From positions 5,944 to 69,943 of the forward strand of contig JYNZ01000001.1 of NCBI GenBank assembly GCA_001567355.1: a stretch of DNA of 64,000 nt, given 5' to 3'. Below are positions 9,655 to 47,854 of the stretch, one piece after another. Position 1 is the stretch's first letter; every line of letters begins with the position of its first letter. Position numbers and translations under genes: made by a program. The notes below the pieces were generated by a model. The model did no database searches. It saw only the letters and a list, made by a program, of their open reading frames with translations, and was not told the DNA's origin. Source of the DNA: a candidate division WS6 bacterium OLB20. GTDB taxonomy: Bacteria > Patescibacteriota > Dojkabacteria > B142 > OLB20.

Positions 9655-11061
<1,407 letters not shown>

Positions 11062-11479: not shown

Positions 11480-12150
11480 TGCCTTTACTGACAGAACTAT
11501 ACAGGACATTTCTGATCGACTGGGATGGAACACTTGCCAACACAATAGGTGTCTGGCTTGATCTGCTGGTAGAAACGTATGCCGAATATGGAAAATATCC
11601 TGAACCGTCCTTTCTGATGGAAAAGTCCTTTGGTAACTGGGACGCACCAAAGGAATTCGGTATAGAGAATGTCGATGAGTTCAACAGTCATCTGTTTTCA
11701 AAAGTTGATGCAAAATTCTCTACTGCGCCTCTGTTTCCTACCAGTAAACAGCTGCTGAGTGAGCTTAAGCAGCAGCAGAAGCAGCTTGCACTGATCACAT
11801 CAAATGTGAGAAGTGTGATCGATGCAGCGCTGGAACATCATCAGTTAACAGGTGTATTTGATCTGATCATTTCCTCTGATGATGTTTCAGAACACAAGCC
11901 TGATCCTGAAGGAATACACGCAGCGATAAAGGCACTAGGGGCAGAACCTGCATCAACTGTCATGGTCGGAGACAGCTCGAATGATGTGCTCGCAGGTAAG
12001 GCAGCCGGTATTCGGACAGTGCTCCTTTATCCTGATGTTCACCGGCAGATATATTCACCGGGGTATATTGATTCGCTGAACGCAGATCATGTGCTTTCAC
12101 ACCCTGCTGACGTGCTCACCCTGAAGGTTGATGTAACTTCTTCAGCTTGA
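11479..12150 (+). CDS. HAD-superfamily hydrolase (phosphatase/beta-phosphoglucomutase-like)
   Basis: HAD motif I IDWDGTL and motif IV VGDSSNDVLAGKAAG. The start codon overlaps the atpC stop. Confidence 0.7.
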   Translation: MPLLTELYRTFLIDWDGTLANTIGVWLDLLVETYAEYGKYPEPSFLMEKSFGNWDAPKEFGIENVDEFNSHLFSKVDAKFSTAPLFPTSKQLLSELKQQQKQLALITSNVRSVIDAALEHHQLTGVFDLIISSDDVSEHKPDPEGIHAAIKALGAEPASTVMVGDSSNDVLAGKAAGIRTVLLYPDVHRQIYSPGYIDSLNADHVLSHPADVLTLKVDVTSSA

Positions 12151-29730: not shown

Positions 29731-30225
29731 GTGGCGCATGCAAAATACATAGTTGCTGATCTTCTTTCGGTAGATGCCGATGTACTCGTAAATTCTGCCA
29801 ACCGCAGTCTGCTGGCAGGCTCTGGTGTGTGCGGTCAGATATTTACAGTAGCAGGTAAACAACAGCTTGAAGCAGAGTGTCTGAGAATACTACAAGACCG
29901 TGGAGTGAGGTTTCTTGGGGACGGGACATCAGTCATGACCGGCGCATATAACCTGCCGTTTCAGGCAATCATTCATTCGATAACACCCAAGAATCATGTC
30001 GGTGACATCACAAAGGTGTACGACTGCTATCACTCTGCTATGCAACTGGCCATTGCTAACGGATATCAATCGATTGTGTTTCCTTTGCTCGGGACGGGAG
30101 TAAATAACATACCCGCTGAGTATTCAGGGGAACAGGCGATCAGGGCTGTAGATGCTGTTGGTGATATTTTGACAGTGTATTTTTGTTCAAGAGATGCGAG
30201 TCTGGTTGAACTGTTTCGTGGATAG
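29731..30225 (+). CDS. Macro-domain protein (ADP-ribose binding or processing)
   Basis: VNSANRSLLAGSGVCGQI...GTSVMTGAYNLPFQAIIHSITP...SIVFPLLGTGVNNIP are typical macro-domain motifs. Confidence 0.75.
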   Translation: MAHAKYIVADLLSVDADVLVNSANRSLLAGSGVCGQIFTVAGKQQLEAECLRILQDRGVRFLGDGTSVMTGAYNLPFQAIIHSITPKNHVGDITKVYDCYHSAMQLAIANGYQSIVFPLLGTGVNNIPAEYSGEQAIRAVDAVGDILTVYFCSRDASLVELFRG

Positions 30226-31463: not shown

Positions 31464-31841
31464 TTAATTAGATAATATTTCAAGTATCGCTTCGACTTGT
31501 CTTGCGTCAAGCACCATCTCCGGGTACAACCCATGTCGGTACTTTTTGATGATGTGTTGAATCTTTGCAAAAGGGATGGTCTTTGTGTCTTCAGTCTCAG
31601 CAAACTTGATCTGTGAGGTAAAACCGCCTTTCCATGCACCCTTTTCGACTGGGTTACCTGGTTCACCATCAGGTTTTAGTGGTCCTGTGATCTCAAAGGT
31701 GCTTGTGTTGTATAAAAACAAGATGTCGTCTGATTGTATTTTGGAGACGTGACCCCAGAGACCTGGCTCTTCACCAAGGAGCATGCGCTCGTATACTTCT
31801 GGTTTGGTTTTGGCTGTGCAGCGGAAGATGTATCCGGTCAT
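31464..31841 (-). CDS. PUA-like beta-barrel protein (DCD/EVE-type)
   Basis: GYIFRCTAKTKPEVYERMLLG, ILFLYNTSTFEITGP and EKGAWKGG parallel the DCD-domain motifs FGYIFMCN...LFG, LFLYNYST...HGI and AWE. Confidence 0.45.
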   Translation of the reverse strand: MTGYIFRCTAKTKPEVYERMLLGEEPGLWGHVSKIQSDDILFLYNTSTFEITGPLKPDGEPGNPVEKGAWKGGFTSQIKFAETEDTKTIPFAKIQHIIKKYRHGLYPEMVLDARQVEAILEILSN

Positions 31842-32443
31842 TCTAGTTTGTCTCCATAATGATTCTTTTTCAGTTGTCTTATCTTTACTCTTAATGCATT
31901 CACTCTACGATCATTTTCAGGTAGGATTTGAGATTTCTTCTTGAAAAACAGATGTAATGGTATATATGCGACCGCAAATCCAATGATTGTACTTATGTAT
32001 ATGTGAATTTGGAGAACGTTTGAAAGAATGAGAGATGAAGACATGAGTATAAGGAAAAACGCAAGACTAAGCAGCTTCGTTAACCATGTATTCAACTTCT
32101 CTTCTTTATATTTTGTCTTACCTGCATGCTCTAGAAACTCTTCTATGGAATACGAATCAAAACTAAAGTCACCTGCCCAAGTTGTAAAATGGTATGTGTA
32201 AACTCTTCCTTCGTGATAAGCATAACGTAGCTTATAGATGTTAAACAAATCCATTGCTTCAGTAATAAGTTTTTTTTGATCTAGAGAAAATCTTGCGTCA
32301 AATGATTCGTGGGGTAATTCATCCCAAAACATGAACTCTAGACCGTTTTCCTTACAGAAAGAACGAAACTGAGGTACAACAACATTGTTGTTTAATGATT
32401 TCTTTTCTTCCTGCCAACTTTCAAAATCCTGCATGATATACAC
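31838..32443 (-). CDS. hypothetical protein with C-terminal transmembrane helices
   Basis: 201 aa, overlapping the downstream DCD-like gene by 4 nt. Confidence 0.4.
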   Translation of the reverse strand: MYIMQDFESWQEEKKSLNNNVVVPQFRSFCKENGLEFMFWDELPHESFDARFSLDQKKLITEAMDLFNIYKLRYAYHEGRVYTYHFTTWAGDFSFDSYSIEEFLEHAGKTKYKEEKLNTWLTKLLSLAFFLILMSSSLILSNVLQIHIYISTIIGFAVAYIPLHLFFKKKSQILPENDRRVNALRVKIRQLKKNHYGDKLE

Positions 32444-32487: not shown

Positions 32488-35400
32488 TCAAAAGAACCTT
32501 GTCAGCTTCTCGAGAATCGTCTCTCTACTCTTGGCACGTTCCTGATTTGGAGTAAAGCGAGACTTGGGTGGCATGACCTTTGTCAGTGCAGTACCTGATG
32601 TCGTTAGACCACCATCACGAAAGGCACTCTCGATGTATTTATACGTTGCCTCTTTGTTCAGGTTTTCTTCGTTAATAATCTGCTCCAGTTCTTCTATCTT
32701 CTTTTTTTCGACATATTTGTGCCACTCGGTGTCAACTGCTGCTTGAGAATCCAGTGACAGAATAAACTGATTGATCAAGTCTTTTTTGTTGCGTAGTTCA
32801 ACACTGGAGTCGATAGCCTTGTTAATGTCCACCAGAATCTCTTTATCTTTGGTATGACTGTCATGATACTGTTTGATCAGCCTTAGAATATAGTCAATGT
32901 TTATTTCGACCTGTTTGATCAGTTCCATCTCAAACACCAGGTCATCATTGATGTTTTCCTTCTCGCCCTTATCTTTGTCGCGGAACTCGTTGTAGAGGTC
33001 GATGTACATGCTGTGATAATCCTGCACGTCCCTTGGTGACAGGATTTCGTTACCTGCAAACTCGTCAAATGTGACAAGAATATTGCGGACACGCAGAATT
33101 TTTCCGTACAGCTTAATAAAGTCCTTCTGGTGTTGTTCACCTTCGATGCGCTCACCAATGGGGTACTCGGCAATAAGCTGTTCGATCAAATCTTTGTAGC
33201 CGGGTACATCCTTGCCTTCATCCGTGTAGCCTTCGTAGTAGTCCTTGTATGGTTTAAGCAGTACGATTCCGCTTGCCTCTTTATCGCCAAACAGGGCGAT
33301 TGCCTCGTTTGTCTTACCCTCCAGATTGCGGAAGCAGACGATATTACCAAATGTTTTTACACTGTTAAGGATGCGGTTGGTGCGTGAGTATGCCTGTAAT
33401 AATCCATGCATGCGCAGGTTTTTATCAACCCACAGCGTGTTAAGAGTTGTGGCGTCAAAGCCTGTTAAAAACATGTTAACAACGATCAGAATATCAACCT
33501 CAGTTTTTTTGACACGTTCGCTGACGTCTTTATAGTAGTTCTGGAACTTATCTGAGGAGGTATCATACGATGTGCCGAACTGATTATTGTAGTCTTTGAT
33601 TGCATTCTCTAAAAAGTCACGTGAGCTGGCATCCAGTCCGCTGGTATCCTCTGAATTTTCATCGATCATACCGTCCAGGTCTTCGTCGTTAACTCCAAAG
33701 CTGTATATCAGGGCAAGTTTGAGCTGTTTGTCGCTGGGTAGACCTTCAAGCTGTCGCTTAAACTCAGCGTAGTACTTTTTGGCTGCATCAATGGAGGATA
33801 CGGCAAAGATTGAGTTAAAGCCTGCCAGTCTGCGATCTTGAATTTTGTAGTAACTGTTGCGTTTGGTCTTTTGATCAAAATGCTCTCGGATGTAGGTAAC
33901 AATATTTGCCAGTCGCTCGGGGGACTCAAGTGCCGCTGCGCGGTCAATGTCGTTTACCTGCTCGTCTTCGATATCTTCTGCCTCGCGCACGGTCGAGACG
34001 TAGTCGACCTTAAAGGGCAACACATTTTTGTCATTGATGGCATCAACGATGGTATAGGTATGCAGTTTGTCTCCAAAAGCCTGCTGCGTAGTTTTAAAGT
34101 CCGGTCTGCCACCTGATGAGGCATTGACTGCAAAAATTGGTGTGCCGGTAAAGCCAAACAGATGGTAGTTGTTAAATGCTTTGGTGATGGCGGCATGCAT
34201 ACTGCCAAACTGTGATCTGTGACATTCGTCAAAAATCAGCACGACATGTCCATCAAACAGTGTGTGCCCACTGTTACGGCTAATAAACCTGTCCAGCTTT
34301 TGAATAGTCGTGATGATAATACGGGCGTTTGGGTCTTCTAGCTGCTTTTTAAGTATCTTTGTTGAGGTATTACTGTTGGCTGCTCCTTCCTCAAATTTGT
34401 CGTATTCCTTCATGGTCTGGTAGTCCAGGTCTTTACGGTCAACGACAAATACGACCTTGTCGACATCAGGCAGTTTGCTGGCAAGCTGAGCTGTTTTAAA
34501 ACTGGTCAGCGTTTTACCAGAACCTGTGGTGTGCCAGATGTAGCCACCTGCCTCGACTGTACCTGTTTTTTTGTAGTTGGTGCTGACCTCGATGCGGTTA
34601 AGGATGCGTTCTGTAGCGACAATCTGATAGGGTCGCATCACCAGAAGCTGCTGTTCGGAGGTAAATACACAGTAACGTGTCAAAATTCGCAGCAGTGAAT
34701 GTTTGGCAAAAAACGTCTTGGCAAAGTCGATCAGGTCAGTAATCGGTTTGTTGGTGGCATCTGCCCACCAGCTTGTGAACTCAAAACTGTTGCTGGTACG
34801 TCTGCCCTTTTTGGCTTTAGCAGAGCTGGTGCTGTCTTTAATGTGCTGCTTGCGGGTGGTGTTACTGTAGTACTTGGTATGTGTACCGTTTGAGATGACA
34901 AATATCTGCACGTACTCAAACAGTCCGGATTCTGCCCAAAAGCTGTCACGCTGGTAGCGGTTGATCTGATTAAATGCCTCCTGGATTGCCACACCTCGGC
35001 GCTTAAGCTCAATATGCACCAGTGGCAGACCGTTTACCAGCACGGTTACATCATAGCGATTGGTATAGTTGCCTTTATCTGTTGAGTACTGATTGATAAC
35101 CTGCAGGGTATTATCATGAATGTTTTCTTTGCTCAGCAGGTAGATGTTTTTACTTGTGCCGTCATCCCGTTTTAGTGTTTTGATGTAGTCCTCCTGGATT
35201 GTGGCAGTTTTTTCGGCAATGCTCTGGTTTGAGTTGGCAATCTCAGTACCAAAAAAGTGCTGCCATTCGTTATCACTAAAGGTGTAATCATTAAGCTTCT
35301 CAAGTTGGGTGCGCAGGTTAGCTTTCAGGTCTTCAGAGGTTGTGATATTTAAGTACTCATAGGCCTGTGACTCTAACTGCTTAATAAATGCTTGCTCCAG

Positions 35401-35508
35401 CTCTGCCTCGCTTTGATAGTGTTCTGCTCTTTTTGTATCACGGGTGTATTCTGCCACAACTGTGCTTTGGTTACTTTCAATGACCAGGTTGTACTTGGGG
35501 TCAGACAT
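32488..35508 (-). CDS. hsdR: Type I restriction enzyme R subunit
   Basis: Helicase motif I HTTGSGKTLTS, motif II LIFDECHRSQFG, and a nuclease region upstream. 1006 aa. Confidence 0.9.
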   Translation of the reverse strand: MSDPKYNLVIESNQSTVVAEYTRDTKRAEHYQSEAELEQAFIKQLESQAYEYLNITTSEDLKANLRTQLEKLNDYTFSDNEWQHFFGTEIANSNQSIAEKTATIQEDYIKTLKRDDGTSKNIYLLSKENIHDNTLQVINQYSTDKGNYTNRYDVTVLVNGLPLVHIELKRRGVAIQEAFNQINRYQRDSFWAESGLFEYVQIFVISNGTHTKYYSNTTRKQHIKDSTSSAKAKKGRRTSNSFEFTSWWADATNKPITDLIDFAKTFFAKHSLLRILTRYCVFTSEQQLLVMRPYQIVATERILNRIEVSTNYKKTGTVEAGGYIWHTTGSGKTLTSFKTAQLASKLPDVDKVVFVVDRKDLDYQTMKEYDKFEEGAANSNTSTKILKKQLEDPNARIIITTIQKLDRFISRNSGHTLFDGHVVLIFDECHRSQFGSMHAAITKAFNNYHLFGFTGTPIFAVNASSGGRPDFKTTQQAFGDKLHTYTIVDAINDKNVLPFKVDYVSTVREAEDIEDEQVNDIDRAAALESPERLANIVTYIREHFDQKTKRNSYYKIQDRRLAGFNSIFAVSSIDAAKKYYAEFKRQLEGLPSDKQLKLALIYSFGVNDEDLDGMIDENSEDTSGLDASSRDFLENAIKDYNNQFGTSYDTSSDKFQNYYKDVSERVKKTEVDILIVVNMFLTGFDATTLNTLWVDKNLRMHGLLQAYSRTNRILNSVKTFGNIVCFRNLEGKTNEAIALFGDKEASGIVLLKPYKDYYEGYTDEGKDVPGYKDLIEQLIAEYPIGERIEGEQHQKDFIKLYGKILRVRNILVTFDEFAGNEILSPRDVQDYHSMYIDLYNEFRDKDKGEKENINDDLVFEMELIKQVEINIDYILRLIKQYHDSHTKDKEILVDINKAIDSSVELRNKKDLINQFILSLDSQAAVDTEWHKYVEKKKIEELEQIINEENLNKEATYKYIESAFRDGGLTTSGTALTKVMPPKSRFTPNQERAKSRETILEKLTRFF

Positions 35509-35534: not shown

Positions 35535-36768
35535 TCATGAAGTCTTGAGTTCTTTAAAGGTAAGCAGTTTGTTGCGGTAGTACTCGTATTGTTTGCGCCG
35601 AGCGTTGAGCTCGGCAGGGAGACCGACGGTTAAATCGGTAGTTAATCTATTGAAACGATCCAATACATCAACTATTTTTTCTTGTTCTTCTTTTGTTGGA
35701 ATGGGAATTTTGGCTTTTCCAATCCATTTTGAATGTATTGATGAGATCTTTGCCGTTCGTATATGTCTCCTTATCTGCATGCGAAACTTTTTTCGTTTGT
35801 AAGAAGTACGATACGTATTTCGGATTTAGTTTATGTGTAAAAATGAAGCAAGCATCATGAACAACTATATCCTGCTCACCAAGCCAAGCAACTCCACCAC
35901 CAATGTCCTCAATTGTCTCGCCAGCTGCGACAATCACAACATCACCGTGCTTTGCAACACGAAGCCTGTTTGCTAGAGTCTCGGGTAGAAAAGAGATTGC
36001 ATCAGTTGCCCATGCACCATAGTGTGTGTACATTTCCCCATAATGAATACATGGTTGTCCTGTATCGACGATGTCGTCCTTTACAAATCTCTTGCCACGA
36101 GTAAACATACCTACTTCATCGAGTGGTTTACATGGTGACTTTTCAAGTACGTACAAATCTTCTAAGAAATACTCATACTGCTTCCTCCTCGCCTCCAGCT
36201 CTGCCTCCAGCTCTGCCTCCAATTGTGTGAACTTGTCGAGGATGCTGACAATCTCCTGCTGGACTGCGAGGGGTGGGAGGGGGATTTTGAAGCTTCTAAT
36301 CATCTCCAGATTTAATCCTCCCCTTGTACCATCACCCGAGGAGATGGTCCGAAGCTGTTGGTACTGGGTAGATAAGAAGTGATAAAGAAAATCACTATCA
36401 AGTCTTTCGTTAGGAATGATTGAGCAGAGAGACTGATTTGTACATAATTCAATTCGTGTTCTAGCGACAAGTCCTCTTGTCTTGCCCTGTCCTGCAAGCG
36501 CAATCACTACAGTGTAAGGAGGCACTAGTTTTGTACTACATGAATCATATCCTACTTGTGTGATTTTTTTGTCGGTTTCAAATATCGTTTTCTTATTAAC
36601 TTCTCCTGAACTCATCCAAGGAATTGTTCCGTTCTCCCAGAATTCTGTCACCTTTGATCTAGGAGTTGCACCTGCTAAGCATTCGGCAACTTCTTCAATG
36701 AATACAAATTCGACTCCTTCAGGGCATTTCTCGGCAATCAATTGTTCGAGTTTGGATTGGTGGTTCAT
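35535..36768 (-). pseudogene. hsdS: Type I restriction-modification specificity subunit, frameshifted near the C-terminal conserved region
   Basis: The 366-aa ORF holds target-recognition domain 1, the central conserved region IPLPPLAVQQEIVSILDKFTQLEAEL and target-recognition domain 2. The C-terminal conserved region (IPIPTKEEQEKIVDVLDRFNRL) is in another frame, in an 81-aa ORF. A T6 run at about 35788-35793 lies in the junction zone. Confidence 0.75.
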
Positions 36769-37289
36769 GGTGTAATCTGTTCAATAATTGTGTCAAATTC
36801 GATTGGCTCTTGGTATTGTCTCCCAGCGGGAAGAATAACTTTGAATGCAAATTGATAGTTAAGTCTCTCGTCATTTATATATGCTTGTAACTTTTCACTA
36901 TCATCAATAGTAGAGCTGGATTTCTTAGCTTCGATTACTGCTAGGTTGTTACTTGTTCCGCGATGGTGAATAATAATATCAGGGTATACAGACACACCGC
37001 CGTCCAAAATGTCTTGTAGAAACTTTCTTCGTTTATCTGTTGGCGCTGATTCTAATTTGCTAAGTACTTCTTCTTGCTTTTCACTCCACAGTTGCACTAA
37101 CTTACCCTCACCTAAGGTTCTGTTATATTCGCAATCTACATTCCAGTCTGGAAGCAATTGTTGCAAATACTCTGCAAGTTTATGAGTGATGCTGCGTTCA
37201 CTAGCATCTACCTGTAGTAGAAGACCGTCTCGAGCTAGAAGCGTTTGGTATGCAGTAATGATTTTTGCTTTTAATGGGTCAGCAGTCAT
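36765..37289 (-). CDS. hypothetical PD-(D/E)xK nuclease-fold protein
   Basis: VYPDIIIHH...LAVIEAKK gives the hhhD...ExK spacing. It lies between the ATPase gene and hsdS on the same strand with 1-4 nt gaps. Confidence 0.4.
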   Translation of the reverse strand: MTADPLKAKIITAYQTLLARDGLLLQVDASERSITHKLAEYLQQLLPDWNVDCEYNRTLGEGKLVQLWSEKQEEVLSKLESAPTDKRRKFLQDILDGGVSVYPDIIIHHRGTSNNLAVIEAKKSSSTIDDSEKLQAYINDERLNYQFAFKVILPAGRQYQEPIEFDTIIEQITP

Positions 37290-37290
37290 G

Positions 37291-39875
37291 TTAGTTTAGA
37301 TTTAATTTCTGCATTCGTTTCTTCAGTGCAGCATCTCCACCTTCAAGAATATTCACCATGTCATCTTGTATTTGCTTCAGTTCAATTCCTCCGTTGTGAT
37401 ACTTGAGGGTATTGTTTTCGTTTTCTGCAACTATCACATTTTCCGAATCAGTCAGGAGTAGTAGGTTAGCGCTATGTGTAGCCACAATCACTTGACGTTT
37501 TTCCTTTTGAGTTAGTAGAAGCCTTCTTAGGTCATTTGAAATACCAGAGACATCAATATCATTCTCTGGCTGGTCAATAATTATCGGATATCTACTTTTT
37601 GACAGATTGAAGACAAGATCTAAAAGTGCCATTGCTTTTTGTCCACCAGTCATGTTTTCAAAATCTATCAATTCTTCTCCCTGCTGATATTTCACAGATT
37701 TTGTGAAATCGATATCGTATCTGCAGCTCAACAACGTCACTAACGCGCTTTCTATATCACCACCTGTTGTCTTCAACCTTGCCTTATCTGAACCAGTAAT
37801 AACGTCCTCAATAATCTGAATCAGCTCGTCCTTTCGAAAATCTCGTTTCTCATCAATAAACTTTCTGAAACGTTCCCCAGATCTTCCGTCAATGAATACA
37901 TCAAAGAAAGTACGTTTATAATCATCTACACCGTAACTAACCGTAAAATCAAATGTTATAAAAGCGAATTCATCAAATGCATTTTTGAGTGTTTCAACTA
38001 TTCCATCGATTTTTTTCTCAAAAGATAGGTATAAATCCGCCGTTTCAGTAATTATTTTATTCAGCTCAAGAGTTGATTTATTGATAAATTTTTCCAGTTT
38101 CTCTATTTCTTTTCTCTCTTCAATTAATATGTTTATTTCCTTTAGAATCTTCTCAATGGTTGTATTTTGTTGTAATTTCGATGTTATCGGGATTAGCTTT
38201 CTTTTCTAAGATGTCTTTCTTTTCTTTTTTTGGCTTGAGTCTCAGTCATTAGTTCTGCAAATAGAGAGTTCAGATAGACCTTAATTTCTTGATTAGATAG
38301 TTTCTCAATCTGTTTTTCAATTAACTCTAGCGTTGTATGAGATAATCCAGAGAACGCTTCGTCGTCAACTGTAATGAAACTCATCTCTTCTCTGCTATTT
38401 ATGTTCGCAATAATTCTAATATCTTGCTCTAACAATTTTATCTCTTTGCTAAGAGATTCTATCTCTGAAGAATATTCTGTTTGATTTTTGATATCCTCAT
38501 CACTTATCGCGACCTTACCAAGCTTATTAATTTCTTCTTGCTTAAGCTTTATTGCTTCTTCTTTATCTATTACTTTTCCAAGAGGTTTTAATTGACGAGT
38601 GGTGTCAACAATCTGTTTTTGCATACTTAAAGCCTCCTTTAGTTTTGCATGAATTTTAAGTTCTATTGAGTTAACCATCTCGGATTTACTTACATCTGCA
38701 TTCTTGAATATCTCGTTATTGAAGAGGCGATCCCTAAGTAACTGATCTCGCTTATCGTATTCCCTACCATCTTCATAGGTGATAGTTGATAGGTAGTTCT
38801 GAGGTATATACTCAACATATTTATTTTCGGAACTATTGTCAGACCATTGAATCGCAAAGTCTTTCAATTTGTGAATTTCTTTAACATCGGGTTGTACTTG
38901 TTCACGAAGCACGTCGTAAGCAATATGTTTAAGTAACACGGACTTACCTGCACCACGTTTCCCAATAACAGAATTCATATCCCTGTTAAAGTACAACGTG
39001 CGGGTTTCGCCATCTTGGTTGTACTCTATTTTGTTGATAAATAGTTCAGGAGATGAGTTTTTGCTTTCAGATGGAGCTCTATCTTGTATCAACACTCTGT
39101 TTTTATAGTCAACAACGGCTTGTCTCAGTGTCTCAAAGCAAGAATCTCCTTTTACCCATGTAAATTTCTTTCCAATTTGATCTAAACTGTGAGCGTCACT
39201 ACTTTGGAATATAGCTTTGGTGGTTAGTGGCTTTTCTACGTCTTCTCCTGTCCAGAATTTTATGTCGTCACTTATGTTTGCAACCTTGTTTGAAGAGTGA
39301 ATGACAAAATCAGAGTCTTTAGTGAGCGATTCATACATTATTGAACTTCTGGAATTCCCTTTGCCTCTGGACAACATTCCAACAAGTACCTTACCTCTAA
39401 GATTAGAAAGTGCATCATCACCTAACGTATTAGTCACATCTTTAAACTCAACTACAGCAATCTTTTTCTCATCTATTGATGTAGCTGCACTGAGCATTTT
39501 ATGACTGCCTGAAACAGAGCAGTTTAACTTTGTAAGAAAAGGGTCAATATCTTGCTTAGTCAATTCATTCGAAAAAACAAGATGGAGATCACAGCAATCA
39601 TCCTCTTTATTCGTATAAGTAAGCCGGAGCTCTAAGTTTAAGAAAACTACAATGCCAACTTTTTCAAGTTTATCTTTCAAACCCCAATCGTCGTCACTAA
39701 AATTGAAGTAGTTAGTTAGACCAACTACTTCTAAATTCTCGTCTTTGATTTTCTGTACATATTCATCCATAGATGAAGATGAAAAAGCATTCTCTAGTGA
39801 AGTATGGAACGAATGTAAGTGTAAATCCCACTTTTTCCATTCTGAACCTCGATTGATTTTTTTGTCGCTTTCCAT
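37291..39875 (-). pseudogene. PHP-domain plus ABC/SMC-like ATPase (Ppl-like defense protein), single frameshift at an A7 tract
   Basis: N-terminal PHP motifs WDLHLHS, CDLHLVF and SSDAHS. Walker A GKRGAGKS, then a long coiled coil. The reading frame stays open across 38193-38205 in a second frame, which continues to the ABC signature MTGGQKA, Walker B IIIDQPENDID and H-loop VATHS. The A7 tract is at about 38225-38231. Confidence 0.6.
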
Positions 39876-39876
39876 A

Positions 39877-41456
39877 TTATTTGTCCTCAATATCCCTGAC
39901 AATCTCATCTATCGCCACCCGCAACTCCTGCTGCTTTTTTACAATCTGCTCAATCTCTTTGTTGAGTTCCTTGATATCAATCACCTCACGGGTATCCTCT
40001 GCTTCAACATAGGTTGAAACACTGATTGTGTAGTCGTTTTCTGCAATCTCTTTGTTGTCCACCAGTCTGACAAAGTACTCTTCGTCTGTGCGGTTTACGT
40101 ATGCATCCAGAATTTTTATACGGTGAGGTTCGCTGAGTTTGTTTTTATTGCCGCTGCGTACAAACTGCTCTGAGGCATCAATAAACAGGGTTTTGTTATC
40201 TTTTTTACTCTTTTTAAGCACGATGATGCAGGTGGCAATGGTCACACCAAAAACAGGTCAGGTGGCAACTGGATTACCGCATCAACGTAGTTGTTATCAA
40301 TCAAGTACTTGCGTATCTTTTTTTCTGCACCGCCTCGGTACAGTACGCCCGGGAACTCAACAATGGCTGCTGTTCCACTGGTAGATAGCCACGAAAGCAT
40401 GTGCATGGTAAAAGCCAGGTCCGCTTTGCTTTTTGGTGCAAGTACTCCTGCCGGTGAAAATCTGGGGTCGTTAATGAGTAGCGGGTTGGCATCACCCTCC
40501 CACTTAATTGAATATGGCGGATTGGAGACAATAGCGTCAAATGGTTCGTCATCCCAGTGTTTAGGGTCAGTCAGCGTATCTCCGTGTGCTATGTCAAACT
40601 TTTCGTAGTTGATGTCATGCAAAAACATGTTGATACGACAGAGGTTATAGGTAGTCAAGTTGATCTCCTGCCCAAAAAAGCCCTGTCGCACGTTGTCTTT
40701 ACCCAGCACCTTGGCAAACTTGAGCAGTAGCGAACCTGATCCACAGGCAGGGTCATAGACTTTGTTTACTGACGTTTTGCCAACTGTAGTGATTTCTGCC
40801 AGTAGTTCACTGACCTCCTGCGGGGTAAAAAACTCACCTCCGGACTTACCTGCGTTAGATGCGTACATGCTCATCAGGTACTCATAGGCATCACCAAAGG
40901 CATCTATCGAGTTATCTGCATAATTACCAATCTTTAGACCTGCTACTGCCTCCATCAGGCTGGTGAGCTTTTTGTTGCGTTTTTCGACTGTATTTCCGAG
41001 CTTTCCTGAGCTCACATCAATATCATCAAACAGTCCCTTAAAGTCATCCTCGCTGTCTGCACCATTGGCAGAGCCCTCAATATTATTGAATATCTTCTCT
41101 AGTGTTTCGTTAAGATCGGGATCGTTTTTGGCACGTTTAACGACATTGGTAAACAATTCGCTGGGCAGGATATAAAAGCCCTTTTCTTTAACGGTGTCTG
41201 CCCTGCCGTATTCGGCGTCTTTGTCTGCGAGTGTGGCGTAGTCAAAGTCTTTGTTGCCTGCGCGCTGTTCTTCTTTATTGATGAACTCGGTCAGGTTTTC
41301 GCTGATAAAGCGGTAAAACAACATACCAAGCACGTACTGCTTAAAATCCCAGCCATCAACGCTACCACGCAGGTCATTGGCAATCTGCCAGATGGCGCGG
41401 TGTAGTTCTGAGCGTTCCTGGTCTTTGGTTACGGTTTTAGTATTTAACTTTGCCAT
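39877..41456 (-). pseudogene. hsdM: Type I restriction-modification DNA methyltransferase subunit, frameshifted
   Basis: HsdM N-terminal domain ([14 protein letters not shown]) and catalytic SNPPYS. The ORF ends ...QLPPDLFLV*, and the next ORF continues TIATCIIVLKK...LFIDAS. Canonical QLPPxLFFGTxIATCI would be restored by one extra T in the CTGTTTTTGGTG run (plus-strand A5 at about 40249-40253). Confidence 0.85.
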
Positions 41457-41625
41457 AGTTCTTCTGATTAATATTAAACTTGTTGCGACCGATATTCGAT
41501 CCAGAATAAAATAATGATGCACAATCACTATTTACGGTTATCATTTTTCCCATGAAGATGTCTGGACTACTTCTGTTTTGATTATACATCCAGTAAGTGA
41601 ACTAAATAACCCTCAAATATTGCTG

Positions 41626-42288
41626 CTAAGTATTTTTCAGGTAAGACTTGTAGTTTTCGATGAGTAATTGAGAATCTTCGATATAAGCAATCTCGGGTTC
41701 AAAACTGGATGTGTGAATGCTTCCTTTAGAAAGTTGTGCCTGAGTATCAAGAATGCTCATGACAAGAAGTTGCACAATATACAAACCGTAAGAGTACCAG
41801 AACAAGCGATCCCTATCTATAGCGCGTAATGTGTATGGATTCATATGAACCACACCTGATAGGACTTTATAATCGTTTTCGTAAATCTTTAAACGACTCT
41901 TTGCTGACATTTCATAAGCACTAGGTATTTTTACCCTAACGCTTGATTTGCTGGCTAGGGGATACTTCTTTCCAGTCAGTAGTTCATAATCTAATCTTTC
42001 CATAGCATTCATCAGTTCTTCGGGATCTTGCGAACTTATTGCTGCTTCAACTTGCCAGAATAGCTCGAGCAAAGATCGTATTGCGATCAAGCAATATTTT
42101 TTGTTTCTTTGGGCAAGGATGTTACTGCATAAAGCATCGAACTCTTTAAGGAGTCGATTTATTTTTAGGTCGGTTACAGACTTGGGTTTACTGATCTGAT
42201 ATTTACTTAAGACTATACCCCGACGAATATTTGCCCTGAATTGACCTATGAATGTATTAAGATTAATGCTCTGGGATATCGAAGTCAT
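41626..42288 (-). CDS. hypothetical protein (first gene of the restriction-modification island, upstream of hsdM)
   Basis: 220 aa, AT-rich codon usage like the rest of the island. No motif recognised. Confidence 0.4.
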   Translation of the reverse strand: MTSISQSINLNTFIGQFRANIRRGIVLSKYQISKPKSVTDLKINRLLKEFDALCSNILAQRNKKYCLIAIRSLLELFWQVEAAISSQDPEELMNAMERLDYELLTGKKYPLASKSSVRVKIPSAYEMSAKSRLKIYENDYKVLSGVVHMNPYTLRAIDRDRLFWYSYGLYIVQLLVMSILDTQAQLSKGSIHTSSFEPEIAYIEDSQLLIENYKSYLKNT

Positions 42289-42499: not shown

Positions 42500-42973
42500 A
42501 TGACCTCAGAACACACAACAAAACCCAGACTCTCAACCATAGCAAAAATCCTGCTGCTCACACTCCCTCCCACCCTTTCACTAATCCAGCATCTCGATCC
42601 GTTTGGCCTTAACCCGAATCCTTTTGTCATCATCTTTGCCCACTGGCTGCTCTGGACCGGATTCTATTACATCTGTGCCATTGTTATATGGAAACTTATC
42701 AGCAGCAGACCACCACAGGTTGGATCAGCTGGTACAGATGACGAATCCGGGCATCAGGAGGATACGACACAAACAGACGGCTTTAACGCCTGGTATGAGA
42801 TGAAACGCGGGTTTTTTATCTACTGGGGCTTCTTCTTTGGTGCTCTGGTAACAGGCATAACCGTACTGATAGTTGCTTCCATACTGTCTGCTACGTTCCT
42901 CTGGCGTCTGAATGTTGAATGGGAGGGCTATCAGGAATACAGACAGCTGCAGCAAACTGATCGGGGCAGATAA
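42500..42973 (+). CDS. hypothetical membrane protein
   Basis: 157 aa with 3-4 transmembrane helices. Confidence 0.4.
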   Translation: MTSEHTTKPRLSTIAKILLLTLPPTLSLIQHLDPFGLNPNPFVIIFAHWLLWTGFYYICAIVIWKLISSRPPQVGSAGTDDESGHQEDTTQTDGFNAWYEMKRGFFIYWGFFFGALVTGITVLIVASILSATFLWRLNVEWEGYQEYRQLQQTDRGR

Positions 42974-43071
42974 TTGGATACATATGATCCGGTTACCAGA
43001 AACTGCCTGCTGTTGTCAGGCACAAGTCAGGATCAGCAAACCCGATACTCAGTGACAGACATAACATGTAA

Positions 43072-45131
43072 CTACGAATATGTTATCCCGCGTCCCCAGT
43101 ACTCAATAAATCCGGGCTGTACCTGCAATCCGTCCCTGCCATGTCTCAGTCCTGCCTCTATACGTGTAACGACAATGTCTGCAAGCTCCTCGGGGGTCTG
43201 TGCCTGTCGCAATTCCTGCGAATCAGCCCAGTACGGCAGCGTGTTTGCAAGTACAGAGATGACGGCCGACTGATCAGAACCGGGGTACAGCTGCTGCATA
43301 AGCGCTCCTGTTTTACCGGTAAGGGTGTATAAAAAGTCTGACAGCAGGGATACGCGATCAGCGCGGGACTGCTCAATATACTCGGGGTAATCTGACCAGA
43401 TCAGTTGTCTGTACTCAGGATGCGCCCTGGTCAGAATGCTTGTGCTGCTGAGAAACTTATTGACAGACCTGATCAGTGGTATAGACACAGGGGTGATCTC
43501 AAGAGGCTCCTGTGCTGATTCTCGATTGCTCTGAGCCTGCAGGGTCTCCTCAAGCAGAGACAATTCGGAAGGACCCACCAGTCCATCACTTGCAAGTGGT
43601 CGCTCATTAAACCTAATCAACAGCCTTACGGCCTCATCTGTCAGTCGTTTTGATACCGGATCGAGCAGAATATTAAACGACTCACTGTTTATCTGTTTTC
43701 CCTGCTTAGCATAGGCAGCAATCATGCGGTTGACGTAGTCGGGATCCTCTGTAACAAAGTGCTCGTGCAAACCAACCATGTAAAGCGGGTCACCAAAATA
43801 CCACGATCCGAGCATGGTTGTCGCAGTCTCTACCTCACGCCTGATGGCTGTGACAGGATCGGTTTTTAACTCGTCGATAACTCCGGCACGCCGCTCAGGT
43901 AAAACCGGCAGCATTACCCGCTTCTGCTCTGCAATCAGCAGAAAATCCTCAGGTGACTGCCGGGCGATCTTTTGCAGGAGGTCTACAAGCTTCTGTTCAT
44001 CCTGAAGTAACGCGTATTCTACAACCTCATCGCGGGTTATCCAGCCCTCCCTCATCATCGCCTGCATCCAGCGAACCAGGGTGGCGTATCCGATAGTTGA
44101 TGTGACATCCTTTGGCGGGTCAAAATAATCCAGATTCTCCTGCTCACAGATCGCTATCAGTGTAGTCATGTCAGTAAGCGCCTCATTCATCAGATGTGAA
44201 AAATCATCTCGTGCGTTATGCTCGGTCACCTGAAAATGCGTGCGTTCATGTGCGTCAACGTGCTGCAGCTTTCTTCTGATAGCCTCAACAGGCAATCCGG
44301 GATCAAACACCGCAAATGCGATTGGCAATCCTGTAACAGGATCGGTCCCTGCAGCAATCCCTGATGCCGGAAGCCCGGAATACCATCATTTGCTCCTACC
44401 TCTGAGATGTTACTCAGCGGCGCAGATCGCTTCAGACTGCTGACGAGGTAGACATTCTGGTTTAAATCGCTGTTTACGGGGAGTCCCAGACGCTGTCTCT
44501 CCTTCTTTAACCATTCACGGTGTGATGCAGCCTTATCCTGCATATAGCTGAGCGCCTCCTCGTATACTTTGGAATGCGTTTCACCCAGATATGGTGACGT
44601 AGACAGAAGCAGTTCAACAGTCATGTTATAAAAATCCTGATGCCTGCCACCGTGTGCCTGTGTGGGCGGATCCGGTGGTTCAGGAGTTGTGTCTTCAAAC
44701 AGCGTATCCTCTATATCTCCAGTGAAAAAGTGCTGCAAAGCCCCGGTACTTGAATACGGTCCACTCACCCACTCTGTGCCTTGACTGTGGGGGCCGATTA
44801 CACGGACAAACATCTCGCTGTCTGGATTTGCGCCGGACTCCAACAGTCGCTTGTATGCTGCAGCATAAACACTTTGTATGTGTATATGACTGCTCACAAG
44901 TTCCTCCTCAAAAAATGAATCCGGAAGCATATCAGTCACAAGTGCTGCAAACTGTCTGGAACGTTCCAGAAATATCGCGGGAGGTCTTGTCTCTGGATTG
45001 TCAATCTGCTGCTGCAGACTTTCGTCGAGTTCATAGGACCGCTGCACAGGTTCTGACAGCTGTGATTCATATCTGGCCGTAAGCCGGGGATATAAGAGAC
45101 CTATCTCTGAATACGCCGAATCTGTTTCCAT
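43072..45131 (-). CDS. hypothetical protein, present as two overlapping ORFs (301 aa and 418 aa) that may be one frameshifted gene
   Basis: The ORFs 44226-45131 and 43072-44328 are co-directional and overlap by about 100 nt in different frames. No domain recognised. Confidence 0.35.
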
Positions 45132-45195
45132 GAATGTGATGCTTTGCTGACAGCCGGAAGTAGATACACGACTGTCTCAGAAATAATAGCCTGTA

Positions 45196-45594
45196 TTGCA
45201 GGCATTATACAAAGTGCAGCAGGCACGTGCTATACTCACCCCCATGAAACCAGAAACCGTAGAAGCGCTGGTCGTCAACATCCGCAACCATCCCGACACC
45301 GGCCAGACAACAGAGTTTACACCTAAGACAGCTGCGTGCCCGGCGGACTGCTACCTGCTTGAAAAACGCCATTACAACGGGACAACATATAATACCTGCG
45401 CACTGGCACGGGCTGTGATCACAGCTTCAGCACGTGTGCTGGGTAACAGACACCTGTACACCGAGCGCGAACGTATCCCGGGTGAGCTGCTTGATTGCCC
45501 TGTGGGCGTGATGCTTGAGCAGGACGCGATCATCATCCCCAACGCCTCAGATCCGGAAGTCGGGATTGAGCTGCGTCTGCGCAGCAGACTGTAA
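45196..45594 (+). CDS. hypothetical protein
   Basis: 132-aa ORF. Confidence 0.3.
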   Translation: MQALYKVQQARAILTPMKPETVEALVVNIRNHPDTGQTTEFTPKTAACPADCYLLEKRHYNGTTYNTCALARAVITASARVLGNRHLYTERERIPGELLDCPVGVMLEQDAIIIPNASDPEVGIELRLRSRL

Positions 45595-45610
45595 TATCCC
45601 AGCTAACTGA

Positions 45611-45880
45611 CTAGAAGATATCAAATATCTCCGACAGGAATGACTCACGCTTGCGCGGCCTGTTTCTGTCAGAGCCTCCACGGTAGTCGTCGTCATCGTC
45701 ACCACCGATACGTGGTGCATTCTCATCACCGTAACTGTCATTTTGTTTTACTGCGGCAAGCAGCTTTTCCAGCTCGCCTTTATCAAGCCAGACACCACCT
45801 GAGACAGGACAGTATTCGATCTCGATACCAAATTTGGTGATCTTTTTCATCTCAACTTCTGGGTGCAGTGGACTCTTCAT
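45611..45880 (-). CDS. zinc-ribbon (zf-TFIIB-like) small protein with an acidic tail
   Basis: YCPVSGGVWLDKGELEKL matches the C-x2-C...WLD-GEL zinc-ribbon pattern. The C-terminal half is Asp-rich. Confidence 0.4.
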   Translation of the reverse strand: MKSPLHPEVEMKKITKFGIEIEYCPVSGGVWLDKGELEKLLAAVKQNDSYGDENAPRIGGDDDDDYRGGSDRNRPRKRESFLSEIFDIF

Positions 45881-46697
45881 CGCGATCTGAATAACAAGTA
45901 ATTACTGAAGACGTATTATTATGTGTGTCCGGGTGTACATCTGATTGCATATCATCCGGAGTCACGTCCGTCTGAGGCAGCAGTGCAGATCCGATCTGTT
46001 CCCGTGTCAGACGGGCAAGATTCATGGCGTTTCTGACCAGCAGCACAGGACCGGCCGGGCGGTCATCCGGACTGCGGTCGCTGCGGTCAAACATGTCATA
46101 GAGCAGATGCAGCTGACCGGTTGCTGGAAACGTGTAGCACCCGAGAATTACAGGAGATGTGATATAGAATCCGCCGCGTATCTGCGTAATGCCTGAGGGA
46201 ACAGAAGGTGTAGCGCTGAGTTTGTTTTGCTTGATCAGAACAGGGTGCTCATGCGTATACTCCGAAAAGCCATGTGTACCTTTGAGCAGCAGACGGGTTA
46301 CCAGCCGTTCCTGGGACGGAATCAGATTCTGATAGGCAAGGCCGTTCCAGCCTTTGTCCGGGAATGCGCCCTCTGCATCAGGACAGTAAGGGCTTTGTGC
46401 CTGTGAATGATCTCTAAGCAGCGAGTAGCCTACAGTAAAGACGTCCGCACCGATCTTGGCTGCGGGATCAAAATCCTCAAATTCATAGCTGGTGTCTGCA
46501 TGCCAGCCCAACTGAACAGCTGACGCTGCAAACGCGTTATCTCTGCTGACATGCTTCCAGGTAAACAGTGGCCACAAATCTGCAAAGTCAAATACAGGGA
46601 CACCAAGTTCAGGATGTGCCCCTCGCACAATCGATGCTAACAGCTCAGAAAACTTTTTCTGAGTGATACGTTCGAGAACAGAATCTCCCAGCTCCAT
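45852..46697 (-). CDS. hypothetical protein, paralog of the ORF at 57567-58286
   Basis: Shared C-terminal block FYITSPVILGCY...LLYDMFDRSDRSPDDRPAGPVLLVR versus FITSPVIIGCY...PVYDLFDRPHRPAHDRPAGPVLLIR. Confidence 0.45.
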   Translation of the reverse strand: MELGDSVLERITQKKFSELLASIVRGAHPELGVPVFDFADLWPLFTWKHVSRDNAFAASAVQLGWHADTSYEFEDFDPAAKIGADVFTVGYSLLRDHSQAQSPYCPDAEGAFPDKGWNGLAYQNLIPSQERLVTRLLLKGTHGFSEYTHEHPVLIKQNKLSATPSVPSGITQIRGGFYITSPVILGCYTFPATGQLHLLYDMFDRSDRSPDDRPAGPVLLVRNAMNLARLTREQIGSALLPQTDVTPDDMQSDVHPDTHNNTSSVITCYSDRDEESTAPRS

Positions 46698-46759
46698 TTG
46701 TATATACTAACTATATACATTGTAGCATGAATATTATGATATAATACAGGTATATAGCA

Positions 46760-47854
46760 TTGATCATCATGGAACTTAACACACTGCACAGACCGGACGC
46801 ACAGCGTATCGTCACCCACGAACCCCATAAGGGTATGGAGTTAAAGACGATTGCTGAGCCGCTAAGCGGACCCGAACAGATAGAGGAGCTTATCCCCGGC
46901 TTTAGTGAGGCATATTCAGACGCACTAAACCGTGTCGGTCCTCTTGTTTACTCTGATCCGGGATTTGTCCACCCGGCGCTGTTCTTCTGTGACGATGCCG
47001 GTTTTAACAGATATCTCGGCCGCGCACTTGCAGATTCAAATTCGCCTACGGCAGAAGGAGGACCGGGTAACCTGGTCTACTCAGGACATGAGAACGCGAT
47101 TTACATCCGCAGAAATGCGTTTGCCAATCGTGTAAAAAAAGGAGGATGGGACAGAGAGTTTATGGTCAGGGGAATTGTCGAAGAGATGCTGCATGCAGGT
47201 TCAACATTCGTTTCTCCGGACGGTACCGGCATGCGTGTCGGTTTTTATACAGTGCAGGCTGATGGTGCCAGGATTGTTGATTCGTCCCGACGACTGGAAG
47301 GCGGTCTGTATGCATGGCACACAGAAGCAATGACACCTGAAGAACTGGCTGAATACGGTGATGTTGACGAATACAGAGGTCAGGTTGAAGACCCTCTGCA
47401 GATTGCATTTACAGAACATGTCACCTCACTACTTGGCGCAATGCTGTTTGATGCGCAGCCGTATAACAAGGAAGGTGACAGAGTATCATTTTCGATCAGA
47501 CTGGCAGACGGGCTTGCAATGGGCGTGGGATCGTTCCGCAAGGAACACCTGCGTGCTATGTACTCATTCTCAGACATGACATTTGAACAGCGACTCTATG
47601 CAACACTGCAGGCAGGAACATTGCCCGCATTTAAAGATTTTATGATTGATCCGCTGAATAAACTGAAGTATAAGCATTTCAAGCGACTGTCACAGCAGCT
47701 CAAACACACCAGCGGACAACCGATTTCGCTTAATGACATCCAGAATAAAATGATTCCGTCGCTTGTGACAGCATACGGATACATGGGCAACAAAATCATG
47801 ATGGTCACCGACCGGACCATATTTACCGACGTCATGCACAGGCGAACGAGATAG
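46760..47854 (+). CDS. hypothetical protein
   Basis: 364-aa ORF. No motif recognised. Confidence 0.45.
   Translation: MIIMELNTLHRPDAQRIVTHEPHKGMELKTIAEPLSGPEQIEELIPGFSEAYSDALNRVGPLVYSDPGFVHPALFFCDDAGFNRYLGRALADSNSPTAEGGPGNLVYSGHENAIYIRRNAFANRVKKGGWDREFMVRGIVEEMLHAGSTFVSPDGTGMRVGFYTVQADGARIVDSSRRLEGGLYAWHTEAMTPEELAEYGDVDEYRGQVEDPLQIAFTEHVTSLLGAMLFDAQPYNKEGDRVSFSIRLADGLAMGVGSFRKEHLRAMYSFSDMTFEQRLYATLQAGTLPAFKDFMIDPLNKLKYKHFKRLSQQLKHTSGQPISLNDIQNKMIPSLVTAYGYMGNKIMMVTDRTIFTDVMHRRTR

Follow-up and report, generated by a model that had tools for sequence, protein, structure and literature searches.

Two unrelated cargo genes, each moving independently of the other, probably occupy the hsdM-hsdS gap of a Type I restriction-modification (R-M) operon in a bacterium of the WS6/Dojkabacteria, a reading to which we assign a probability of about 0.72. 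The operon belongs to candidate division WS6 bacterium OLB20 and lies on the minus strand of a 64,000-nucleotide (nt) stretch of contig JYNZ01000001.1 (assembly GCA_001567355.1, positions 5,944 to 69,943), here called the window and numbered from its first letter. The first cargo gene, referred to as the large gene (37291..39875, minus strand), encodes a TrlF-family protein of about 862 amino acids (aa) once one frameshift is repaired, in which a PHP domain is joined to an SMC/Rad50-like ABC ATPase. The second, the small gene (36765..37289, minus strand), encodes a minimal PD-(D/E)xK nuclease-like protein of 174 aa that falls into the PD-lambda-3A family. A preliminary description of this DNA had taken the two as a single ATPase-plus-nuclease module. 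We regard them as independent passengers because each occurs without the other in all samples of relatives and in the orthologous operons.

Distribution of the two genes

The two genes do not travel together. A scan for the small gene, with one genome per species, returned 340 loci, of which the best 80 were fetched with flanks of up to 10 kb; a scan of metagenomes for the large gene returned more than 574 loci, and again the best 80 were fetched. Relatives of the large protein were found in 0 of the 80 small-gene genomic loci, either by tblastn (E ≤ 1e-4) or with a profile hidden Markov model (HMM) built from 26 members, the sole HMM match being a marginal, generic ABC protein downstream of an hsdR. 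In the opposite direction, tblastn and an HMM search at E ≤ 1 brought up no small-protein relative in any of the 80 large-gene metagenomic loci. The small gene was absent from all six distinct contexts of the closest large-protein homologues (68–75% identity), and the large gene from all five contig loci of the three closest small-protein homologues examined (P0004–P0006, 51–54%). Across 171 related loci in all, either gene always stood without the other. The proposed paired module was thus not borne out (0/80, 0/80, 0/6 and 0/5 co-occurrences), and homologues of the small protein accompanied a PHP-ATPase in none of the samples, the outcome named beforehand as speaking against a pair.

Orthologous operons, whose hsdM and hsdR are 77–81% and 59–79% identical to those of the window, hold each gene alone in the same slot. 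The small gene is the only cargo type in the order hsdM-small-hsdS-hsdR (L002, L004, L007, L009, L018, L020 and L170). It follows a RhuM gene in L001 (hsdM-RhuM-small-hsdS), precedes a gene for an AAA_21 plus DUF4435 protein in L168 and L169, and follows a gene for a 219-aa protein in L171 and L172, each time between hsdM and hsdS. The large gene occurs without the small gene in L164 (large-hsdS-hsdR) and L173 (hsdM-RhuM-hsdM fragment-large-hsdS). L173 is the locus of P0121, the closest homologue of the large protein (75% identical), and the order large-hsdS-hsdR surrounds P0123 (74%), with an hsdR 77% identical to that of the window. P0124 (73%), P0122 (73%) and P0129 (68%) lie behind an EcoRI-type methylase and a GmrSD_N/HNH gene, and P0135 (69%) has no adjacent R-M genes. 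P0004–P0006 are all encoded in members of this operon family (about 79% identity to the window in both hsdM and hsdR), which are arranged as HTH-hsdM-small-hsdS-hsdR, with the AAA_21 plus DUF4435 gene after the small gene, or with the 219-aa gene before it. The cargo of the orthologous operons varies among RhuM, Fic/DUF1612, DUF1016/YhcG, ABC-DUF4435 and TrlF-like genes.

In L173 (2045-2326), a second, partial hsdM C-terminus stands between the RhuM and TrlF-like genes; it is 52% identical to residues 31–121 of the C-terminal hsdM fragment in the window and has the look of a remnant left when cassettes were exchanged through recombination at the hsdM 3' end. The AAA_21 plus DUF4435 protein of L168 (3817-5316) and L169 (2874-4373) is an OLD-like ABC ATPase of 499 aa encoded between the small gene and hsdS, that is, on the opposite side of the small nuclease gene from the TrlF-like gene of the window. 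In L168–L172 a 68-aa HTH_3/HTH_31 gene immediately precedes hsdM, and in the window this place is taken by an unrelated 220-aa open reading frame (ORF; 41626-42288) without a family match. A 2025 paper reportedly describes RptR, a repressor of R-M systems.

The large protein

The large protein combines a PHP domain with an ABC/SMC-like ATPase, as the preliminary description had stated; sequence motifs and structure prediction agree on this, and the PHP, Walker A, signature and Walker B motifs that had been quoted are all present (WDLHLHS, DLHLVF, SSDAH, GKRGAGKS, MTGGQKA and YPIIIDQPE). The PHP domain covers residues ~1–265 (39083..39875, minus strand, as for all features of this gene), with H19, H21, E82, H98, D227 and H229 invariant. 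Walker A, GKRGAGKS, was read from the sequence at residues 305–312 (38940..38963), with G305, G310, K311 and S312 invariant. A helical coiled-coil insert separates the ATPase lobes at residues ~373–630 (approximately 37992..38759; DSSP helices 373–629 in the AF2 model). The ABC signature TGGQK (37636-37650) and Walker B IIIDQPE (37564-37584) together span 37564..37650, with M743, G746, D769, Q770, P771 and E772 invariant. Further invariant residues are Q359, the signature from M743 to G746, D769–E772 and D774 of Walker B and the D-loop, and H802. A Foldseek search with the predicted model returned the heads of SMC, JetC, Rad50, MukB and RecN with their coiled coils, as well as AriA, to which the protein is also closest in sequence among proteins of solved structure (E 2.5e-8).

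Curated profiles assign the protein to TrlF, a family that is sister to Ppl. The frameshift-repaired protein scored 385.6 bits against the cut-off of 350 for the NCBIfam model NF045780, 'TrlF family AAA-like ATPase' (E 7.7e-115), with residues 9–859 aligned to positions 1–943 of the 944-position profile, and it has the N-terminal PHP fold with conserved His/Asp metal ligands expected of a TrlF protein. Its score for Ppl (NF042955) was 112.9 bits against a cut-off of 1000 (E 1e-32, best stretch 433–858), and the PADLOC Ppl model PDLC02208 matched best over residues 694–858 only, the C-terminal ATPase lobe (E 9.2e-29). The likeness to Ppl drawn in the preliminary description was reasonable as to relationship and architecture, but Ppl membership is rejected at the NCBIfam cut-off. 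The cut-off for Spaf_1101 was not reached either (150.9 vs 475 bits), and the PADLOC matches to MADS (mad3), AriA, AbiLi and HEC-01A were set aside as generic ABC-ATPase similarity.

The protein is colinear with many full-length homologues of 855–865 aa (63–75% identity), and those with a named source come mostly from bins of Patescibacteria, that is, the candidate phyla radiation (CPR). The NCBI annotation of the large protein contains a 525-aa fragment only. Homologues of about 920 aa (P0149, P0154, P0160, P0179 and P0200) are 66–72% identical over the ATPase three-quarters and about 30% identical over the PHP domain, with extra inserts; this divergence of the PHP domain points to module swapping within the family. 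P0193 (1030 aa, 46% identity) carries a RhuM domain (PF13310) and could be a fusion of two frequent hsd-embedded cargo types or an artefact of gene calling.

The nearest described counterpart is TrlF of the Photorhabdus laumondii trlR-trlF-trlG locus, which resembles the large protein over its full length in having an N-terminal PHP domain (annotated 'histidinol phosphatase') followed by an ABC-type ATPase. The trl genes of Yersinia plasmid pYR3 also adjoin Type I hsdM genes, as the large gene does. The Photorhabdus locus includes the partners TrlG (AlbA_2 plus HATPase_c_4) and TrlR, a feature of the locus and not of the family model, whereas neither was found in the window; for a TrlG-like partner this was searched by tblastn with all neighbours of family members and by Pfam. 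Family-wide, TrlG-like AlbA_2 genes were downstream neighbours in 5 of 57 scored cases. Upstream of large-family genes we found HsdS (5), BrxL (4), assorted methylases and GmrSD_N, and downstream AlbA_2 (5) or HATPase_c_4 (4), HsdR-type helicases and GmrSD_N.

Because a candidate PHP nuclease and an SMC/Rad50-like ATPase are already combined in one polypeptide, the TrlF-like protein would need no separate effector. It would most likely act as a self-contained, ATP-gated nuclease, as has been proposed and not demonstrated for Ppl, a mechanistically uncharacterised single-gene ATPase-PHP anti-phage defence (PMC11482910). Recognition of a phage cue or nucleic-acid structure would fall to the ATPase heads and coiled coil, and cleavage of phosphodiester bonds to the PHP domain. 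Fused ABC-nuclease defences such as OLD and HEC-04 follow the same logic, which is the general model for defences built on an ABC ATPase with a fused or associated effector. Ppl has the same single-polypeptide layout and, with an HMM similarity that is significant but partial and lies mainly in the C-terminal lobe, probably shares its working logic with the large protein.

The small protein

The small protein is a PD-(D/E)xK-fold protein of the PD-lambda-3A family, a classification that draws on PADLOC and fold comparison only. PADLOC matched it to PD-Lambda-3_A (E 4.1e-28, 96.3 bits), Pfam and NCBIfam returned no match, and a profile search of PDB sequences gave nothing meaningful. Structure prediction shows a restriction-endonuclease-like alpha-beta-beta-beta-alpha-beta core and so confirms the fold that had been proposed from the letters alone. 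The catalytic-type residues are D104 (36978-36980, minus strand) and E120-x-K122 (36924-36932, minus strand). Among 31 sequences of the family, E31, D52, E54, P103-D104 and E120-A-K122 are invariant; these residues fit a PD-(D/E)xK site, and nuclease activity is predicted. The family comprises 1498 proteins at E ≤ 1e-3, typically of 150–178 aa, and members of the subfamily found in the window contain an inserted helical segment of about 25 aa.

PD-lambda-3 itself, from E. coli ECOR28 (Vassallo et al. 2022), is a validated three-gene abortive-infection system made up of a small nuclease-like protein A, a protein B with AbiJ_NTD3 and Hypoth_Ymh/HEPN, and a beta-propeller protein C (PMC9519451). 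Component A has its counterpart in the small gene, which here stands alone before hsdS; components B and C are absent from the window by PADLOC and Pfam, and the small gene is flanked by the TrlF-like gene and by hsdS instead. A PD-lambda-3-like trio was seen on the IncHI1B conjugative E. coli plasmid p22Q34-1 (L179, NZ_ON934556.1 43741-46499), with genes for a 159-aa hypothetical protein, a TIGR02391/Ymh protein and a 477-aa 'restriction endonuclease'. The trio lies downstream of BREX pglZ-brxL, with an IS903B element in between. The preliminary description had offered no exact match for the architecture and had held that it might be a new variant, but both proteins fall into named families, TrlF and PD-lambda-3A.

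The small gene is a recurrent resident of this operon family because it sits alone immediately upstream of hsdS in orthologous operons. Its persistence before hsdS while other cargo changes suggests that the small protein either works on its own, as an embedded nuclease, or assists the R-M complex.

Embedding in the R-M operon

On the minus strand the ORFs, with Pfam and PADLOC assignments, run hsdM, large gene, small gene, hsdS, hsdR, in the order and at the coordinates reported in the preliminary description. hsdM (39877..41528) encodes the Type I methyltransferase, with Pfam HsdM_N and N6_Mtase on both of its fragments and a PADLOC MTase_I score of 343 bits; translation probably begins at the ATG at 41456. 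hsdS (35535..36768) encodes the specificity subunit, with Pfam Methylase_S on both fragments and PADLOC Specificity_I. hsdR (32488..35508) is intact and encodes a restriction subunit of 1006 aa, with Pfam HSDR_N, SWI2_SNF2, T1R_D3-like and EcoR124_C and a PADLOC REase_I score of 1168 bits. One operon thus contains all three Type I R-M genes. The junctions are +1 nt between hsdM and the large gene, +1 nt between the large and small genes, and -4 nt, an ATGA start-stop overlap, between the small gene and hsdS. These three agree with the claim that all five genes abut with gaps of 4 nt or less, but hsdS and hsdR are 26 nt apart. The G+C fraction is 0.352 and 0.390 in the two cargo genes, 0.449 in hsdM and hsdR and 0.479 in the whole window, and the low values of both cargo genes fit horizontally exchanged cassettes.

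Both extra genes lie between hsdM and hsdS, which is, as noted in the preliminary description, an established hot spot of accessory defence cargo. Embedding in Type I R-M, BREX and DISARM operons has been surveyed as 'guilt-by-embedding', with 17,432 genes in 3,231 families reported (Payne et al. 2024); the portions of that survey cited here name neither the TrlF nor the PD-lambda-3A family as embedded cargo. Among hsd-embedded genes, PrrC and the Campylobacter rlo genes were described earlier. Genes placed in this way are commonly interpreted as complementary or back-up defence, which has been shown for TgvAB in the Type I operon of Vibrio cholerae. The genes of the window are likewise co-oriented and tightly packed inside the hsd operon, as PrrC, Rlo and TgvAB are described to be, and by analogy with TgvAB the cargo would serve as complementary or back-up defence to the R-M system. 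Embedding in R-M operons, the pairing of an ABC ATPase and a PD-(D/E)xK protein encoded apart (HEC-02), and both protein families are already known.

Frameshifts

Three genes of the operon carry a one-base frameshift, all within about 6 kb and all at homopolymers. In the large gene the shift lies at 38196..38199 (minus strand), where one base is apparently missing in an A-run (gaaagc). tblastn with P0121 aligned residues 1–559 in frame -3, ending at 38199, and residues 560–859 in frame -2, starting at 38196. As given, the gene is therefore split into the ORFs 38193..39908 and 37291..37776-plus, the first frame stopping at 38193, and the length of about 860 aa claimed earlier holds after a one-base repair, not as one open frame. 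With the extra A the sequence reads RKEKLIPITSK, compared with EKELVPITEK in homologues. A repair with two frameshifts was rejected, a single shift being enough by the P0121 alignment. In hsdM the shift is at ~40245 (minus strand), in a T5 run (ctgtttttggtg) where T6 would restore a canonical 14-residue stretch, and in hsdS it falls in an A-rich stretch at ~35735-35780 (minus strand), where the frame change is seen from the sequence and by tblastn with the HsdS proteins of L002 and L007. The shifts aside, the frames are clean, with no further stops and 63–80% identity to intact homologues over the whole length; hsdR and the small gene have intact reading frames.

The OLB bins, going by their name, presumably come from the Olburgen anammox study, which used IonTorrent data. 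The methods of that presumed source study mention 'persistent frameshifts, common in IonTorrent data', and its authors state that frameshifts were corrected. Sequencing error is the simplest reading because the shifts are single-base, all sit in homopolymers, and the frames are otherwise clean and 63–80% identical to intact homologues; most likely, the three are IonTorrent homopolymer errors that survived correction.

Alternative readings

It is very improbable, in our judgement, that the large and small proteins together make up a single defence system, a variant of Ppl/TrlF that has a nuclease partner of its own and operates like Septu, PARIS, Gabija or HEC-02. The genes do adjoin on the same strand with a 1-nt gap, and HEC-02 is described as a validated system of an ABC ATPase and a separate PD-(D/E)xK (NERD) protein. 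The ATPase head of the large protein is of the same ABC/SMC class as those of HEC-02, Septu, PARIS and Gabija, but it lacks a conserved HNH, TOPRIM or NERD partner and has a PHP domain fused N-terminally instead, a predicted nuclease domain of its own that leaves a partner unneeded. Faint PADLOC matches speak for a pair, those of the large protein to HEC-01A and AriA and a marginal one of the small protein to HEC-02B (E 0.0016, 16.4 bits), but HEC-02A is absent from the PADLOC matches of the large protein. The two genes co-occur in none of the 80 + 80 sampled loci and in no close-homologue context, and the orthologous operons hold each alone in the same slot. Some observations nevertheless weigh against the reading of two independent cargo genes. 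The inspected loci were the best 80 of 340 for the small gene and the best 80 of more than 574 for the large gene, and many contigs were short. The 1-nt gap and common orientation within one operon make co-expression or functional interplay at this locus possible. An ABC-ATPase gene adjoins the small gene in two arrangements, TrlF-like here and AAA_21-DUF4435 in L168/L169, which could hint at a loose affinity of the small gene for ATPases. In addition, the temperature-restriction phenotype of Photorhabdus mapped to trlG, where all selected mutations fell, with none in trlF, and the assignment of the bin to the IonTorrent study has the OLB name, and no computed result, behind it.

A rather unlikely alternative leaves the TrlF-like gene as independent cargo and makes the small PD-(D/E)xK protein a functional accessory of this Type I R-M family, as an extra nuclease, a sentinel that responds to R-M inhibition, or a regulator of HsdS/HsdM. 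A Methylase_S (HsdS) gene lies directly downstream of the small gene in 19 of 52 scorable loci, and an N6_Mtase (HsdM) gene directly upstream in 12 of 55; the other upstream neighbours are hsd-embedded cargo types (Fic/DUF1612, RhuM, DUF1016/YhcG and ORF6N) and, once, Hypoth_Ymh, as in PD-lambda-3. By tblastn, hsd genes flank the small gene on both sides in 20 of the 80 loci, placing it between hsdM and hsdS/hsdR, and at least one hsd gene is present in 26; the flanked loci come from lineages that include Actinomycetes, Peregrinibacteria (CPR), Chloroflexota and methanogenic archaea. The gene is kept while the surrounding cargo varies, its end overlaps the start of hsdS in the window, and in L004, an Actinomycetes bin, two copies (10001-10447 and 11621-12019) flank hsdS in the order hsdM-small-hsdS-small-hsdR. 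However, about two thirds of the 80 loci have no nearby hsd gene, members of the family are also found in the trio of PD-lambda-3 beside BREX on enterobacterial plasmids, and the orthologous operons L164 and L173 do without it. A broader form, in which PD-lambda-3A-like mini-nucleases are an unrecognised and phylogenetically widespread Type I R-M accessory (a second nuclease or an anti-restriction sentinel) that was also recruited into PD-lambda-3, we consider doubtful. Finally, all three frameshifts might be real, and neither the R-M system nor its cargo functional, in a decaying pseudogene cluster. Three of the five genes are shifted within about 6 kb, and the shifts remain although the presumed source study reports correction, but single-base changes in homopolymer runs are the signature of IonTorrent error, and the clean frames elsewhere, together with the intact hsdR and small gene, make decay improbable.

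Other features of the window

Directly downstream of hsdR, a 201-aa protein without a family match is encoded at 31838-32443 (minus strand), and its gene is overlapped by 4 nt by that of a 125-aa DCD-domain protein (31464-31841, minus strand; PF10539, E 1e-14). DCD/EVE domains have been described as modified-base binding modules, and the pair may be further R-M-linked cargo. A stand-alone Macro-domain protein (29731-30225, plus strand; PF01661, E 4e-23) is encoded about 2 kb from the R-M operon. The stretch 42500-47854 contains ORFs of 132–418 aa with a higher G+C fraction of about 0.50, the four largest without a Pfam or PADLOC match. Two of its ORFs on one strand (43072-44328 and 44226-45131) share about 100 nt and may be another frameshifted gene.

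Implications

What resembles an ATPase-plus-nuclease pair is, on our reading, two unrelated passengers, and it does not warrant an entry of its own among two-gene defence systems. Cargo turnover in the hsdM-hsdS gap is high, and for that reason tight adjacency within an R-M operon is weak evidence of a functional pair. Across many phyla, the position immediately upstream of hsdS is repeatedly taken by a lone PD-lambda-3A mini-nuclease. TrlF-family PHP-ATPases are common in candidate-phyla bacteria and lie consistently beside methylase-based systems (Type I, II and III R-M and BREX). Temperature restriction in Photorhabdus is the only phenotype published for this family, and its association with such systems supports a role in defence.

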